The notes below the pieces were generated by a model that ran no database searches, was not told the origin of the DNA, and saw only the letters and a list, made by a program, of their open reading frames with translations. DNA of 40,710 nt from Enterobacteria phage HK140: the sequence record NC_019710.1. One strand, 5' to 3'. The position numbers and the translations under genes were made by a program. Positions 28,298-33,102 of the stretch are shown piece after piece (the stretch's first letter is position 1; each line of letters begins with the position of its first letter).

Positions 28298-28523
28298 AGG
28301 ATGCTCCTTCTGTTTGATTACATAACGAAAACGCCTCGAGTGAAGCGTTATTGGTATGCATATAAAAAAGCCCTCACACTGGAGGGCAAAGAAGATTTCC
28401 AATAATCAGAACAAGTCGGCTCCTGTTTAGTTACGAGCGACATTGCTCCGTGTATTCACTCGTTGGAATGAATACACAGTGCAGTGTTTATTCTGTTATT
28501 TATGCCAAAAATAAAGGCCACTA

Positions 28524-28724
28524 TCAGGCAGCTTTGTTGTTCTGTTTACCAAGTTCTCTGGCAATCATTGCCGTCGCTCGTATTGCCCATTTATCGACAT
28601 ATTTCCCATCTTCCATTACAGGAAACATTTCTTCAGGCTTAACCATGCATTCCGATTGCAGCTTGCATCCATTGCATCGCTTGAATTGTCCACACCATTG
28701 ATTTTTATCAATAGTCGTAGTCAT
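28524..28724 (-). CDS. Hypothetical Cys-rich small protein
   Basis: 66 aa with four Cys (C-x5-C-x2-C-x5-C); RBS AGGA before the ATG; start overlaps a 27-aa acidic upstream ORF. Confidence 0.4.
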   Translation of the reverse strand: MTTTIDKNQWCGQFKRCNGCKLQSECMVKPEEMFPVMEDGKYVDKWAIRATAMIARELGKQNNKAA

Positions 28725-28937
28725 AAGGATAGTCCTGGTATTGTTCCATCACATCCTGGGGATGCTCTTCGAACTCTTCAAATTCTTCTTCCATATATCA
28801 CCTTAAATAGTGGATTGCGGTAGTAAAGATTGTGCCTGTCTTTTAACCACATCAGGCTCGGTGGTTCTCGTGTACCCCTACAGCGAGAAATCGGATAAAC
28901 TCTATTCACCCCTACAGAGAGCAAAAGAGAAACGCCG

Positions 28938-29519
28938 ATGAACAACTCATGGTGGCAGGAACTAATGCATTTTTTCCTGCAAGGAATGACACTTAAACAG
29001 TTGATTCATATGCTAATCATCCTGATCATATTGATTATTGTTATGCCGGTAAGCGTAAAAGAATGGATAAACCTGCATAATCCAGAAATCCTTCCTCATT
29101 ACTGGATGTATTACATCCTGTTGTTTTGCGTTAGCTATGTGCTTAACGGCGTTGTTAATTCCGCTTATCACGCTGTGACTGAAAGAATTGAGGTATTCGC
29201 TGCTCAGAAGCGCAAATCTAAAGAAGAAAAATATGTGCAAGATTTGTTTGATTCGTTAACTCTTGGAGAAAGAGCGTATTTGGCATTCGCTGTAGCCGCG
29301 AATAACCAGCTAAAGACAGAAAAGGGAAGCCCTGAAGCAATCTCATTGCTCGAAAAAGGGCTTCTTATTCGGATACCTTCTGCTACTGGATATCCTGAAA
29401 TCGACCGTTTTGTTATCCCGGAACGCTATAGAAATGAGTGCTACATTAGGTTTGCTGGGAAGAAAGACAGTCTTATGGATGAACTTATCGCTCAGGATAA
29501 GCATGGCAAAAACAAGTAA
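28938..29519 (+). CDS. Membrane protein, candidate SieB-like superinfection exclusion protein
   Basis: 193 aa; two N-terminal hydrophobic helices (LIHMLIILIILIIVMPVSV, YWMYYILLFCVSYVLNGVV) and a charged C-terminal domain; opposite strand to the surrounding early operon. Confidence 0.45.
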   Translation: MNNSWWQELMHFFLQGMTLKQLIHMLIILIILIIVMPVSVKEWINLHNPEILPHYWMYYILLFCVSYVLNGVVNSAYHAVTERIEVFAAQKRKSKEEKYVQDLFDSLTLGERAYLAFAVAANNQLKTEKGSPEAISLLEKGLLIRIPSATGYPEIDRFVIPERYRNECYIRFAGKKDSLMDELIAQDKHGKNK

Positions 29520-29534
29520 TTAGCAAATGATTTA

Positions 29535-29807
29535 TCATCTCGCCGTCAGTTGTTTTGATTTCCTGTAGCCTGCCGCGTAAATGGCTACGTTTGGCAGGCA
29601 AACACTTCCACTGCATTCATCAACTTTCTTGCAGCGAAGACTTCCGAGTGATGCTGCTTTGTCTGCTCTGACGCAACCAGAGAGCTTTAGCGCAATTTTT
29701 CGCGCCAGTCGCTGCTCTTGCATCGCCTGTTCACGTTGAGCCTGTCTGCGTGCTCTGCGGCGATTTCTGGCGTTATCGTCAGCCAGATATGTAATGACTA
29801 CTGTCAT
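29535..29807 (-). CDS. N: N-like antitermination protein
   Basis: 90 aa from the ATG at 29807 (RBS GGAGG); N-terminal arginine-rich motif DNARNRRRARRQAQREQ; first gene downstream of nutL. Confidence 0.6.
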   Translation of the reverse strand: MTVVITYLADDNARNRRRARRQAQREQAMQEQRLARKIALKLSGCVRADKAASLGSLRCKKVDECSGSVCLPNVAIYAAGYRKSKQLTAR

Positions 29808-30118
29808 GTTGACCTCCGATGAAACAACTTTGGAATTGATAGTGATTGCAAAGTGGTTTCTGGCCCCTCGAATTGAGGGGCAGAAAGAGCATCTCGCCAC
29901 CTAATAGGTCGATGCTCGGATCGAGAGATTTAATTAACCTCGGTTTTGAAGTTATGCATTCACATAAATCCTCCTGTTGCATGTGCAGCATTGGCTGTGT
30001 TTGGCGGCTGCATTTCGCCTATGGAATTGACTTTGGCGGTGACGCGCCGGGTGCTTATCTTCCGGTTGCCGTCGTGCAGCTGCACTTCACGTCACCCCAA
30101 AGCCAACTACTCTTTGGT

Positions 30119-30159
30119 TCCCGCATTTCGGCGGGACAATCCCATCAATGTTAAAGAGC
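30119..30159 (-). promoter_or_regulatory. nutL (boxA-like GGCTCTTTAA plus boxB hairpin)
   Basis: Minus-strand boxB TCCCGCCGAAATGCGGGA is identical to the nutR boxB; boxA-like element lies 14 nt upstream. Confidence 0.6.
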
Positions 30160-30206
30160 CTGCCAATCTGTTCCGTTTGGCTACCAGCGTCCTGCTGATG
30201 GTTAAA

Positions 30207-30292
30207 GAATACTGTAGGTATTTTATTTTGTAAATACTCAAGGTATTTATTTTGGTGAAATAATGATAAGCAAATGAATACAAAGGATATTT
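30207..30292. promoter_or_regulatory. OL operators (three 17-bp sites) and presumed pL
   Basis: GAATACtgtagGTATTT (30207-30223), AAATACtcaagGTATTT (30232-30248), GAATACaaaggATATTT (30276-30292). Confidence 0.6.
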
Positions 30293-30377
30293 ATTTTTTC
30301 GGCGTCTGCTTGTTCAGTGCTTTTTATGCGGGATATGTGAAGTGGATCCCGATAGCTATTGCTGCCGGGATTATGGG

Positions 30378-30746
30378 TTAGTCAGCGAAGGTTAAGACGA
30401 GAATTACCTTAATGATGTCTGCTACAACAGACACGGCCATAGATAAACCAAAGACGATCCAAGCCATAGAGATGTCTTCACTACCATCGTATAGAGTTCC
30501 GTAATCACTGGTATAAGGCGTAAATGTCGCGCCTTGATACAATAGGTATAAGCTTGATCCATAGAGGATAAATGCAGATATCCCTTGTATTGCTATGATC
30601 ACCAGAATCATGAAACGAGCTGATCTATGCGCCCAAGCCTGGCTTATTTTTTCTGATAGAGATTTCGCAAGAAAAGCATGCGCTAAGCCGTAAATTGTCG
30701 AGATTGCCAACATCCCAAAAAAGCTTGCTATAGCGGTTCCAACCAT
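30378..30746 (-). CDS. Small three-helix membrane protein co-transcribed with cI (lambda rexAB position)
   Basis: 122 aa from the ATG at 30746 (RBS AAGGGG), or 129 aa from the TTG at 30767 overlapping the cI stop; three hydrophobic segments; lies between cI and OL. Confidence 0.6.
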   Translation of the reverse strand: MVGTAIASFFGMLAISTIYGLAHAFLAKSLSEKISQAWAHRSARFMILVIIAIQGISAFILYGSSLYLLYQGATFTPYTSDYGTLYDGSEDISMAWIVFGLSMAVSVVADIIKVILVLTFAD

Positions 30747-30763
30747 AAGCGCCCCTTGCGTGA

Positions 30764-31480
30764 TCAAACCAGCCTTAGTTTTGTCTCAATTGCAACGCCT
30801 ATAATCTTGCAGTTTCCATTGATTGGCACGAGAGGCCATGCAGGATTAAGTCCCTTGAGGTATTTATTTCCGCCGTCGATTATCAGCTTCTTGAATGTTG
30901 CTTCGTTAGAGTCAGAAAGTTTTGCTATGACCAAGCTGCCGTTGACCGCCTCCCTTCCGGTATCGAAAAGAACGAATGTTCCCTCTGGAATGCTTAACCC
31001 AACCGGTGCCGTCATTGAATCACCTTCCACTTTAAGCCAGAACGCATTACCTTGAATATGCGCGTCAGACTCAAGCCAAACATCTATGTCTTTAATGGTG
31101 TATGGTTCGCATGCTTCACACCACGAGCCAGCCTGGATACTGCTTAACACCGGATACCTCTTTCCTGCTCTGTATTCCCCTGCATACCTTACGTTGGCAT
31201 CGCTCTTAAGGCTTTCTGCCTGTTCTGCAACCTTGGCAGCAATTGACTGGCTAAAATCAGCAATTGAGACTTGCAACAACCGTGCAAAACCAGATGCAAC
31301 CTCAACGTTTAGCGCGTTTCTGCCATTAAGATAATGCCCTACCGCTCCTTGGGTGATACCCAGTTCATCAGCGATTGAGTATTGGGTTATTCCCAATTCT
31401 TTCTTTTTTGACTCATACAAAGCCTTAAGCCGCTTAGCGTCTTCGAGCTGTTCTGTCGTCAGTGATTTTTTATTTTCCAT
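30764..31480 (-). CDS. cI: CI repressor (HTH plus S24 autopeptidase)
   Basis: 238 aa; N-terminal HTH (QYSIADELGITQGAVGHYLNG), C-terminal GDSM serine motif and downstream Lys; divergent from cro across OR. Confidence 0.9.
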   Translation of the reverse strand: MENKKSLTTEQLEDAKRLKALYESKKKELGITQYSIADELGITQGAVGHYLNGRNALNVEVASGFARLLQVSIADFSQSIAAKVAEQAESLKSDANVRYAGEYRAGKRYPVLSSIQAGSWCEACEPYTIKDIDVWLESDAHIQGNAFWLKVEGDSMTAPVGLSIPEGTFVLFDTGREAVNGSLVIAKLSDSNEATFKKLIIDGGNKYLKGLNPAWPLVPINGNCKIIGVAIETKLRLV

Positions 31481-31490
31481 AGCTTAATTC

Positions 31491-31556
31491 TAATAGCTAA
31501 GGTACTTAAACTAAAAATACCCTGAGTATTGATTGATTTGAATACCTGTAGTATTC
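31491..31556. promoter_or_regulatory. OR operators (three sites) with pRM and pR
   Basis: TAATAGctaagGTACTT (31491-31507, weak), AAATACcctgaGTATTG (31515-31531), GAATACctgtaGTATTC (31540-31556, perfect palindrome); spacing 24-25 bp. Confidence 0.65.
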
Positions 31557-31586
31557 TTTGTTCATGGTTAATAACGGAGAGTGCAT

Positions 31587-31781
31587 ATGATTCGAATGAC
31601 ACTTGCCGATTACGCCAAAATCCATGGACAGGCTAAAGCAGCCAGTGACTTTGGTGTAATCCAGTGCGCTATCAGCAAGGCCATTCTGGCAGGCCGTAAC
31701 ATCATGGTTACGGTAAAGCCTGATGGCAGTGTGATTGGAGAGGAAGTTCGTCCTTTCCCAAGCAACAAGAAAAACAAATAG
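31587..31781 (+). CDS. cro: Cro repressor
   Basis: 64 aa aligning with lambda Cro (ITLKDYA...GVYQSAINKAIHAGR...EEVKPFPSNKK) but with a different recognition helix ([12 protein letters not shown]). Confidence 0.9.
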
Positions 31782-31787
31782 TAACAC

Positions 31788-31831
31788 CGCTCTTTAACAG
31801 TCATGGTCATCACTCCCGCCGAAATGCGGGA
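31788..31831 (+). promoter_or_regulatory. nutR (boxA CGCTCTTTA plus boxB hairpin)
   Basis: boxA at 31788-31796; boxB TCCCGC-cgaaat-GCGGGA at 31814-31831. Confidence 0.7.
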
Positions 31832-31889
31832 ATACAACGCGCATAATTTGATGCGCATAACTTCTTATTTGTTAAGGAAATACTTACAT

Positions 31890-32168
31890 ATGCAACTTAC
31901 AAGTACTCGCAAGAAAGCGAATGCAATTACAAGCAACATCCTGAATCGAATTGCTGTACGTGGTCAGCGAAAGGTTGCCGACGCGTTAGGGATTAATGAA
32001 TCGCAAATTTCGCGATGGAAAGACAGCTTTATCCCAAAGATGGCCATGCTTCTGGCTGTGCTGGAGTGGGGTGTTGAAGACGAGGAATTAGCAAAGCTAG
32101 CAAAGAAAGTAGCCATGGTGCTGACAAAAGAAAAGCCTCAAGACTGCTGCAACAGTTTTGAGGCCTGA
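31890..32168 (+). CDS. cII: CII transcriptional activator
   Basis: 92 aa from the ATG at 31890 (RBS AAGGA); QISRWK...IPKMAMLLAVLEWGVEDEE matches lambda CII (SQISRWKRDWIPKFSMLLAVLEWGV). Confidence 0.85.
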   Translation: MQLTSTRKKANAITSNILNRIAVRGQRKVADALGINESQISRWKDSFIPKMAMLLAVLEWGVEDEELAKLAKKVAMVLTKEKPQDCCNSFEA

Positions 32169-32202
32169 TGTAGAAAGACTGGATCAATCCACAGGAGTCA
32201 TT

Positions 32203-33102
32203 ATGACAAATACAGCAAAAATACTCAACTTCTGCAGAGGTAACTTTGCCAAACAGGAGCGTAATGTGGCAGATCTCGATGATGGTTACGCCAGACTATC
32301 AAATATGCTGCTTGAGGCTTATTCAGGCGCAGATCTGACCAAGCGACAGTTTAAAGTGCTGCTTGCCATTCTGCGTAAAACCTATGGGTGGAATAAACCA
32401 ATGGACAGAATCACCGATTCTCAACTTAGCGAGATTACAAAGTTACCCGTCAAACGGTGCAATGAAGCCAAGTTAGAACTCGTCAGAATGAATATTATCA
32501 AGCAGCAAGGCGGCATGTTTGGACCAAATAAAAACATCTCAGAATGGTGTATCCCTCAAAACGAGGGAAAATCCCCTAAAACGAGGGATAAAACATCCCT
32601 CAAATTGGGGGATTGCTATCCCTCAAAACAGGGGGACACAAAAGACACTAATACAAAAGAAAAAAGAAAAGATTATTCGTCAGAGAATTCTGGCGAATCC
32701 TCTGACCAGCCAGAAAACGATCTTTCTGTGGTTAAACCGGATGCTGCAATTCAGAGCGGCAGCAAGTGGGGAACAGCAGAAGACCTGACCGCCGCAGAGT
32801 GGATGTTTGACATGGTGAAGACTATCGCACCATCAGCCAGAAAACCGAATTTTGCTGGGTGGGCTAACGATATCCGCCTGATGCGTGAACGTGACGGACG
32901 TAACCATCGCGACATGTGTGTACTGTTCCGCTGGGCATGCCAGGACAACTTCTGGTCCGGTAACGTTCTTAGCCCGGCCAAACTCCGCGACAAGTGGACC
33001 CAGCTCGAAATCAACCGTAACAAGCAACAGGCAGTCGTGACAGCCAGCAAACCAAAACTCGACCTGACAAACACAGACTGGATTTACGGGGTGGATCTAT
33101 GA
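32203..33102 (+). CDS. O: Replication initiator O
   Basis: 299 aa from the ATG at 32203; appears near-identical to lambda O from memory (MTNTAKILNF...); contains the ori iterons. Confidence 0.9.
   Translation: MTNTAKILNFCRGNFAKQERNVADLDDGYARLSNMLLEAYSGADLTKRQFKVLLAILRKTYGWNKPMDRITDSQLSEITKLPVKRCNEAKLELVRMNIIKQQGGMFGPNKNISEWCIPQNEGKSPKTRDKTSLKLGDCYPSKQGDTKDTNTKEKRKDYSSENSGESSDQPENDLSVVKPDAAIQSGSKWGTAEDLTAAEWMFDMVKTIAPSARKPNFAGWANDIRLMRERDGRNHRDMCVLFRWACQDNFWSGNVLSPAKLRDKWTQLEINRNKQQAVVTASKPKLDLTNTDWIYGVDL
32552..32636. repeat. ori iterons (four copies of the TCCCTCAAAACGAGGGA-type repeat) with adjacent A/T-rich region
   Basis: Four related ~18-bp repeats at 32552, 32572, 32597 and 32619, followed by an A/T-rich stretch at 32641-32675, inside the O gene. 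Confidence 0.8.

Follow-up and report, generated by a model that had tools for sequence, protein, structure and literature searches.

The N leader of phage HK140: nut sites of the HK620 type and a probable structured cassette around a second hairpin

Introduction

Which elements make up the long leader of the antitermination gene N in Enterobacteria phage HK140, and is one of them an additional site of N action? The sequence record NC_019710.1 (40,710 nt; this whole stretch is called the window below) carries N on its minus strand. Ahead of N lie a leftward N-utilisation site (nutL), which contains the hairpin boxB, and, further downstream, a second GC-rich hairpin (H2). The original prediction, made from the letters of the window alone, had noticed the same boxB at a rightward site (nutR) and had proposed that H2 might be a processing site or an additional N-utilisation-like element. 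We lean towards the view that the locus combines the nut sites of an HK620-type phage with an optional structured cassette, and that H2 is held in this cassette.

The nut sites and the N gene

The boxB sequence TCCCGCCGAAATGCGGGA occurs twice in the 40.7-kb window, with no further copy at up to three mismatches (0.03 expected from shuffled sequences). At nutL (30119-30136, minus strand), it reads UCCCGC-CGAAAU-GCGGGA, with a 6-bp stem and with GAAA flanked by C and U, and it folds as a hairpin. The copy at nutR (31814-31831, plus strand) has the same sequence and coincides with the nutR annotation of phage HK620. The identity of the two boxB copies was thus confirmed, as was the presence of a boxA-like element ahead of each. 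This element, GCTCTTTAACA, is also found twice (30149-30159, minus strand, and 31789-31799, plus strand), 12 nt upstream of boxB at nutL and 14 nt upstream at nutR. With the adjoining base, boxA is GGCTCTTTAACA at nutL (30149-30160, minus strand), the same as in the annotated HK620 nutL, and CGCTCTTTAACA at nutR (31788-31799, plus strand), where it lies right behind the stop codon of cro, as in the HK620 nutR annotation.

Both sites match a lambda-type nut site, having a boxA that resembles CGCUCUU(U)A upstream of a short hairpin on the transcribed strand. Their positions are also lambda-like, one being just downstream of the leftward promoter pL and the other downstream of cro in the transcript from the rightward promoter pR. 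Judged from sequence, the two boxA-boxB units are very probably the nut sites of an N-type antiterminator. By homology to lambda and by position, nutL and the identical boxB of nutR would recruit the phage N protein through its arginine-rich motif, together with host Nus factors, and the N-Nus complex would make RNA polymerase resistant to termination, as in the lambda mechanism.

The N gene (29535-29807, minus strand; 90 aa) is encoded downstream of nutL, belongs to phrog_271 and corresponds to the annotated N of HK620. It codes for an arginine-rich motif (NARNRRRARRQAQREQ; the N-terminal residues 12-24 read NARNRRRARRQAQ), and the protein matches Pfam family PF25694 (N_peptide) with 57.7 bits at a cut-off of 27.9. 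The earlier call of an N-like protein is borne out by this match, by the positions of nutL and nutR and by their identity to the HK620 nutL and nutR features. The C-terminal part of the protein resembles other N proteins, and the HK620 record notes a similarity to the N proteins of H-19B and phi21. A promoter scan placed a pL-like promoter at 30206-30234 (minus strand; -35 TTTACA, -10 TATTCT), overlapping OL operator repeats, and the pL transcript starts near 30199. Three operator-like direct repeats of the form AATAC...GTAT (family D1) are found at pL, and their HK620 counterparts are pL and OL1-3. From this promoter (30234-30206) to the start of N at 29807, the leader spans about 390 nt, the length that had been given.

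The GenBank record of HK620 (AF335538, 2001) annotates pL, OL1-3, nutL, N, nutR and tR1, with the nut sites termed 'putative'. Its nutL (GGCTCTTTAACATTGATGGGATTGTCCCGCCGAAATGCGGGA) is identical to that of the window, base for base from boxA through the spacer to boxB, and its nutR has the same boxA and boxB but a spacer that differs at two positions. HK620 and the window are also alike in the arginine-rich motif of N, in the pL/OL layout and in the order cI-cro-cII. In view of the HK620 annotation, the nut sites are already known, and their detection here is a re-discovery with nothing new.

The specificity class of boxB

From IMG/VR, 80 loci with the same N (96-100% identical) were collected, and the distance between boxB and the ATG of N could be resolved in 77. 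For the count of boxB types, 77 IMG/VR loci were chosen solely by their N protein; nutL has the identical boxB 18-mer in 76 of these, with an invariant loop. The hairpin that follows boxA switches with the arginine-rich motif of N in all 72 classifiable loci (67 HK620-type, four P22-type and one H-19B-like). There are three classes, with the boxB sequences UCCCGCCGAAAUGCGGGA (HK620 type), GCGCUGACAAAGCGC (P22 type) and CGGCUGAAAAGCCG (H-19B-like). The boxB type tracks the arginine-rich motif, in line with the earlier statement that boxB defines the N-specificity class.

The P22 (gene 24), phi21 and H-19B classes have the same boxA-boxB architecture, in which the loop is read by the arginine-rich motif. 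The CGAAAU loop of the window belongs to none of these classes; the loop is GACAA in P22 and GAAAA in the H-19B-like locus. It also differs from lambda, as had been claimed; when read from the lambda leader, the lambda nutL boxB is GCCCU-GAAGA-AGGGC, with the loop GAAGA, as compared to UCCCGC-CGAAAU-GCGGGA in the window. The loop is open to two readings, as a hexaloop and, by inference, as a GAAA tetraloop that sits on a C-U mismatch. A literature search retrieved no binding, antitermination or biochemical study for the CGAAAU boxB class; apparently, no biochemical work has addressed this HK620-class hairpin, in which C and U flank the GAAA. The nutR module of the window is found behind a different cro in CUS-3-type prophages, which indicates that nut sites move together with N rather than with the repressor.

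An optional cassette in the N leader

Alignment of the leader to those of HK620 and mEpX2 delineates a cassette of 204 nt (29823-30026, minus strand) that is present in the window and absent from both other phages. The insertion is clean, being flanked by ...CGCCAAAGTCAA and TCATCGGAGGTCAACATG, and it is positioned exactly between a long leader hairpin (see below) and the ribosome-binding site of N. The cassette includes H2, which was confirmed as GCCCCUC-AAUUC-GAGGGGC at 29863-29881 (minus strand), preceded by TGCTCTTTC; it is the sole such site in the window. In the RNA folding that the original prediction had suggested, the boxB of nutL formed a hairpin, and H2 formed in the folds of the cassette.

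The cassette was found in nine of 77 loci with the same N, so most phages with the N of the window go without it. The distance between boxB and ATG is 107 nt in 56 loci (HK620 type), 311 nt in five (window type), 313-314 nt in two, 400 nt in one and 561 nt in one; the remaining 12 have other lengths (112, 194, 331, 358, 427 or 444 nt), and three of the 80 loci were unresolved. Among 5,426 complete E. coli genomes, 156 (about 3%) contain the cassette. It is also present in 64 IMG/VR contigs and in about 20 metagenome contigs, and the metagenome scan gave no further lineage. Two scans of one-genome-per-species contigs did not find it. The cassette is not confined to the HK620-type N, as four loci with a P22-type N and the boxB of P22, and another with an H-19B-like N, carry it in their N leaders as well. 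It thus co-occurs with three N classes, in Escherichia and in Cronobacter-related contexts. In the H-19B-like leader (IMG/VR locus L136), the boxB is CGGCUGAAAAGCCG; a GCTCTTTAA boxA is absent from the 700 nt that precede the cassette, and an additional hairpin (GAAUCUACAACGAUUC) stands ahead of boxB. A two-hairpin nutR has been described for H-19B (PMC3526286), and the arrangement in L136 is reminiscent of it.

Prophage CUS-3 (CP000711) has a homologous cassette (74% identical) in a region annotated only as 'bsq5; boundary sequence'. The N gene that directly follows this cassette encodes the arginine-rich motif of the window N. The two leaders share nutL, the long hairpin and, within the cassette, a hairpin H0, a start-stop, a stop cluster and the hairpins H1, H2 and H3 (see below). 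They differ in the interior of H1, in the sequence of H2 and in the in-frame 9-codon open reading frame (ORF), which CUS-3 lacks; outside the leader, they differ in the cI/cro immunity region and in the C-terminus of N.

The cassette is bounded by direct repeats (family D9, consensus TCAATTCCA(T/A)AG). The upstream copy, TCAATTCCATAG (30019-30030, minus strand), is identical to the downstream copy, TCAATTCCAAAG (29828-29839, minus strand), at 11 of 12 positions. In the P22-class cassettes, the bounding repeat is a perfect 14-mer, CAAAGCCATTTCAC, and the P22-class Cronobacter phage ENT47670 shows an exact collapse of this repeat, with one copy and no cassette.

Other optional elements occupy the same leader, the order being nutL, an optional insert of about 250 nt, the long hairpin, then either the 204-nt cassette or a 39-aa ORF, and finally the ribosome site of N. 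The second insert, between boxB and the long hairpin, was seen in three IMG/VR loci (L017, L031 and L016). It begins with a Shine-Dalgarno sequence and a mini-ORF (AGGAGGUGCCGUA-AUG-GUG-CAC-UAA), and it can co-occur with the cassette, as in L016, where boxB and ATG are 561 nt apart. In three further IMG/VR loci (L013, L084 and L032), the cassette is replaced by a 39-aa hydrophobic ORF (MLDIITNPILGGLVTTFAIGFGFTIWSEVDDWMWERKNK) with its own ribosome site, and L116 has a 66-aa ORF between cassette and N. The 5' end of the cassette, CGAAAUGCAGCCGCCAAA (30000-30017), resembles the 3' half of boxB plus CCAAA (30113-30130) at 14 of 18 bases. This part is not engaged in a stem, and its conservation does not extend to the CUS-3 type; as far as the letters go, it may be the vestige of a duplication.

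The cassette is undescribed and optional, and it is unannotated or misannotated in public records. The N leader as a whole is mishandled by the annotations of UTI89 and ENT47670. In the former (locus L004, 2325-2714), RefSeq has an antisense 129-aa 'hypothetical protein' over the leader; in the latter (locus L183, 261-908), N is annotated as a protein of 215 aa with a start upstream of nutL. In the window, a mechanically called 121-aa ORF with a GTG start (29535-29900) would extend N over H2.

Anatomy and structure of the cassette

At the 5' side of the cassette, the consensus fold has the hairpin H0 (29984-30012, minus strand), with UGCAGC, a variable C/A-rich loop and GCUGCA. It is followed by a Shine-Dalgarno sequence and a start-stop, AGGAGGAUUU-AUG-UGA (29960-29975, minus strand), which belong to a conserved 18-mer. 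The exact 18-mer is present in all 62 cassette loci that were retrieved by an unrelated pattern in H0. In the lineage of the window, an in-frame 9-codon ORF (29930-29959) follows the start-stop; between cassette lineages, no peptide is conserved beyond AUG-UGA. Alignment columns are invariant at UUAAUUAAAU (29928-29937, minus strand), which contains stop codons in two frames, and the corresponding stop cluster of the CUS-3 type, UUAAUUAAAUAG, has stops in all three.

Three hairpins make up the remainder. H1 (GAGCAUC...GAUGCUC; 29887-29917, minus strand) folds in seven of seven variants tested and has a compensatory change in L136 (GAACAUC/GAUGUUC). H2 comes next, and H3 (GAAAC-C-ACUUUG...CAAAGU-U-GUUUC; 29821-29860, minus strand) is indicated by the folds and by pairing across variants; the P22-class cassettes have an unrelated hairpin in its place. 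When folded alone, all seven variants show the same arrangement of H1, H2 and H3, with z-scores from -3.0 to -5.1. Covariation was analyzed in 31 distinct variants, which represent only about four to five lineages, with the partner strand slid as a control. In the cassette stems, 99.4% of the cells are paired, as compared to 35-52% with the partner slid, and five pairs show changes on both sides. This is moderate evidence for a conserved RNA structure as modeled here. As a separate observation, the nutL spacer CAUUGAUGGGAUUG (30137-30150) is nearly complementary to the H3 loop CAAUCACUAUCAAU (29833-29846, both on the minus strand). The two pair in the minimum-energy fold of the full leader, but only in the window lineage; because this pairing is absent from the CUS-3-type cassettes, it is probably fortuitous.

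H2 itself comes in seven stem/loop forms, with six different loops (AAUUC, AGUUC, AUGUC, UUAU, UAUAU and UAAUU). The CUS-3-type version is UCCCCGUC-UAAUU-GGCGGGGA, and there an additional lower stem, UUCC/GGAA, lengthens H2 to about 12 bp. From one stem type to the other, a G-C pair is exchanged for U-A, a further G-C pair is inserted and a U-A pair becomes U-G. Compensatory changes thus preserve the stem, whereas the loop is variable, and H2 is a stem of structural type rather than a protein-specific boxB. Indels between the lineages do not come in triplets, so that neither the cassette nor H2 is coding. In the region 28500-33000, no Rfam 15 family was detected at E-values up to 10, with only chance-level matches to unrelated eukaryotic and leader families, all far below the gathering scores.

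The second hairpin and the long leader hairpin

The proposal that H2 is an additional N-utilisation-like element amounts to a third nut-like site, consisting of TGCTCTTT and H2, at which N or Nus factors would be loaded for a second time before N is reached. A boxA-like 7-9-mer indeed stands directly 5' of a stable hairpin, it is kept as TGCTCTT in most cassette lineages, and there is a precedent in the mEp021 group, where phages with three nut sites exist (PMC11893012). However, the six loop forms of H2 differ from the invariance of the boxB loop, and the same GCCCCUC/GAGGGGC stem goes along with HK620-, P22- and H-19B-like N proteins, whose boxBs differ. The boxA-like element (29883-29891, minus strand; TGCTCTTCC in CUS-3 and TGTTCTTTC in L136) is separated from the H2 stem by 1-2 nt rather than by the 12-14 nt of the real nut sites. 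Its 5' part is engaged in H1, where TGCTC is the 3' strand and has undergone one compensatory change, and in the CUS-3 type its 3' part pairs in the lower stem of H2. One lineage reads TGTTCTT. The bare 7-mer GCTCTTT is common in the window (12 copies, 6.5 expected), so the motif is weak evidence when taken alone. In addition, H2 is missing from most phages with this N, and a partner copy in the rightward operon was not found in the window even at two mismatches. A third nut site is thus very improbable, and with its variable loop, its association with three N classes and the pairing of TGCTC in H1, H2 did not live up to this part of the original prediction. We are confident that H2 is not a nut site and that it belongs to the optional cassette. 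A role of H2 as an intrinsic terminator was also rejected; the stem is followed by CAGAAACC in sense and by AGAAAGAG in antisense direction, there is no U-tract on either strand, and a terminator scan was empty at this position.

The leader has a better candidate for a processing site. Directly after boxB, the long hairpin (30028-30105, minus strand) has an 18-bp basal helix with one bulge, UGGCUUUGGGGUGACGUG...CGCGUCACC-G-CCAAAGUCA. Among 15 variants from the collected loci, 94.8% of the cells in this helix are paired, as compared to 33-47% in controls with the partner slid by one to three columns. Compensatory changes were found in eight of the 18 pairs, e.g. in GGUGACGUG, GAUUGGAUG, GGUGUGGUG and GAUGCGGUG with their matching partners.

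RNase III substrates normally comprise about two helical turns. In lambda, the hairpin between nutL and the N ribosome site is presumably an RNase III site that controls N translation; such an RNase III-sensitive hairpin was reportedly described by Kameyama in 1991 and by Wilson and colleagues in 1997 and 2002. The lambda leader (NC_001416, 35582 to 35340; locus L184) was folded for comparison. Its stem base, GGCUUUGGGGUGUGUG...CACACACCACCAAAGCU, is found at the same place in the leader as the hairpin of the window. The two leaders share the transcript start AUCAGCAGGACGC, the stem base GGCUUUGGGG...CCAAAG and the order of nutL, long hairpin and N ribosome site. They differ in the interior of the hairpin, and lambda lacks the cassette, so that its hairpin leads straight to the ribosome site. 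Sequence conservation across the window phage, P22-class prophages and lambda covers the hairpin base and the initial 13 nt of the pL transcript; of the hairpin interior, at least six unrelated versions were seen. According to the citing passage in PMC9032294, lambda N mRNA is under positive regulation by RNase III (Kameyama et al. 1991). From these sequence matches, the long helix is quite likely the counterpart of the lambda RNase III hairpin. By homology, it is a probable RNase III processing site of the N leader, and the match of its base to the lambda leader hairpin makes this helix, and not the 7-bp H2, the likely place of processing.

That H2 itself is cut by RNase III or acts as a barrier to RNase E is improbable. 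In favour of this, H2 has a stable, GC-rich stem, the corresponding leader of lambda is processed, and the lower stem of the CUS-3 type brings H2 to about 12 bp. However, its 7-8 uninterrupted base pairs are far below the usual RNase III substrate, it is the 18-bp upstream stem that matches the lambda hairpin in sequence and position, and most phages of this N class have no H2. The idea of a processing site in the leader thus stood, at the level of a prediction, for the 18-bp helix at 30028-30105, while its assignment to H2 with the 7-bp stem did not.

Possible functions of the cassette

Our model follows the order of the elements in the leader. Downstream of nutL, the long hairpin with its 18-bp basal helix would be the RNase III processing site that controls translation of N. 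The cassette would be inserted between this hairpin and the ribosome-binding site of N, with the N gene following. A ribosome at the start-stop, together with the compact three-hairpin fold, might shield the untranslated leader, which the cassette lengthens, from Rho and RNase E. As the cassette widens the distance from nutL to the ribosome site of N, it may also alter the coupling of N translation to nutL and to RNase III processing. Because it is found with three N/boxB specificities, the cassette must act via the host machinery (ribosome, RNases, Rho) and not via N. Its placement exactly between the RNase III-type hairpin and the ribosome site of N is a hint at such a function. Further hints are the strong Shine-Dalgarno sequence, start-stop and multi-frame stops ahead of a three-hairpin domain, and the presence of a Shine-Dalgarno sequence and a (mini-)ORF at the start of the two other optional inserts. 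A possible analogy is offered by start-stop mini-ORFs and by ribosome-binding stabilisers at the 5' end of mRNAs, such as the STAB-SD of Bacillus cryIIIA. Like the cassette, these have a strong Shine-Dalgarno sequence in the 5' untranslated region without a real coding sequence; the organism and its set of RNases differ from those of the window phage. With low confidence, we therefore favour cis-acting control of N mRNA translation, stability or Rho exposure as the role of the cassette.

It is tempting to speculate further, though we think it unlikely, that the cassette acts as an autonomous riboregulator of N which can be exchanged horizontally. The three hairpins, with a ribosome held at the invariant AUG-UGA, would then set the yield of N from un-antiterminated pL transcripts, either by blocking Rho or RNase E or by making N translation independent of nutL and of RNase III control. 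The cassette would plug into N leaders of unrelated boxB specificity.

Several points weigh against a cis-acting role and against selection on the structure. The cassette is dispensable, as it is lacking in most phages that have the same N. Its C/G ratio of 1.0-1.65 is mildly C-rich, so that it is not a strong Rho-loading region. With about four to five lineages, the covariation in H1, H2 and H3 reflects few independent events, and H0 provides no covariation evidence either way, as its six pairs never vary. The start-stop never varies either and is silent on structure; the 18-mer lies on a recombination breakpoint (L005-type recombinants), so that its conservation could reflect recent exchange instead of selection. 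The ribosome site of the mini-ORF has a predicted accessibility that varies with the context and is not always high. For the Shine-Dalgarno sequence of N (GGAGG, 29813-29817, minus strand; 5 nt ahead of AUG and kept in short and long leaders), the predicted accessibility is 0.40 in both leader forms. Sequestration of this sequence was considered and rejected: a CUC-UCGAU helix seen when the cassette is folded alone is lost once the coding start of N is included; moreover, the P22 class lacks this helix, and the CUS-3 type has only a weak form of it.

According to the main rival, the cassette would be mosaic debris without a function, left over from the decayed 5' start of a small gene once located between nutL and N; it would persist only through being harmless and be shuffled by recombination at short boundary repeats. 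The cassette is optional and has direct repeats at its borders, and the short P22-class form is an exact repeat collapse. A Shine-Dalgarno sequence and an ATG with an immediate stop resemble a truncated gene start, genuine small ORFs occur at the same site elsewhere (39 aa in L013, 66 aa in L116), and the depositors of CUS-3 merely used the label 'boundary sequence'. Debris of this kind would, however, hardly be expected to retain the pairing of H1, H2 and H3 despite substitutions and a paired insertion, with about 26% divergence in loops and linkers, or to have a folding energy 3-5 standard deviations below shuffled sequences in every lineage tested. Invariance of the 18-mer and of UUAAUUAAAU across lineages, and persistence in three N classes in both Escherichia and Cronobacter-related contexts, also speak against it, and we rate it as rather doubtful. 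Still less can be said for a separate product encoded by the cassette, be it a small RNA, an antisense RNA or a protein on either strand, for which we see hardly any chance. The region is strongly structured, RefSeq has the antisense hypothetical protein (129 aa) over the UTI89 leader, and mechanically called plus-strand ORFs exist at 29846-30154 and 29946-30233. Such antisense ORFs, however, cross nutL and the long palindromic stem. A scan of both strands detected no promoter- or terminator-like site in or next to the cassette, Rfam gave no match even at E-values up to 10, no peptide is conserved among the lineages, and length differences between variants break the triplet frame (7 or 8 bases in an A-run, 4 or 5 nt in the H2 loop, gaps of 2 nt and 1 nt). 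The phage anti-sRNAs (anti-small RNAs) of enterohaemorrhagic E. coli are located elsewhere, at the pR' moron site (PMC4104026). An AgvB-like sponge for the host small RNA GcvB, suggested by the H0 loop of the window (CAAACACA), was rejected for the same location of the known anti-sRNAs, for the missing Rfam match and because the loop is not conserved in the CUS-3 type. The cassette was also not identified as a Pas small RNA, as these are encoded near structural or Q genes and not at N (bioRxiv 2026.05.13.724894).

Neighbouring features of the immunity region

According to ORFs, Pfam and phrog assignments, the lambdoid immunity region comprises 29.5-32.2 kb of the window. By megablast, it is about 97% identical to HK620, HK630, mEpX2 and several Stx phages. 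It contains cI (30764-31480; HTH_3 and Peptidase_S24 domains), cro (31587-31781) and cII (31890-32168). Just downstream of cI is a small membrane ORF (30378-30767, minus strand; 129 aa, phrog_6534, hkaS-like). A homologue of the superinfection-exclusion protein SieB (28938-29519, plus strand; PF14163, phrog_1301) is convergent with N. Directly after nutR and just before the ribosome site of cII, a hairpin GCGCAT-AATTTG-ATGCGC (31839-31856, plus strand) lies close to the position of tR1 in the HK620 record. The initiation region of N (29791-29820, minus strand) is predicted to pair with the first codons (AUCG/CGAU), with AUG within AUGAC-AGUA-GUCAU; this predicted fold is the same in short and long leaders.

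Significance

The N leader sets the amount of antiterminator in the first minutes of infection by a lambdoid phage. It is a modular scaffold, in which nutL and the lambda-like hairpin base are kept from lambda to P22-like phages and into which optional cassettes are inserted precisely between the leader hairpin and the ribosome site of N. If the riboregulator idea were true, the cassette would be an unrecognised, swappable layer of control in the lysis-lysogeny circuit of P22- and lambda-like prophages. Should the cassette tune N expression, it would offer a simple handle on the dynamics of prophage induction; if it does not, it would be a clean example of mosaic 'boundary' recombination.

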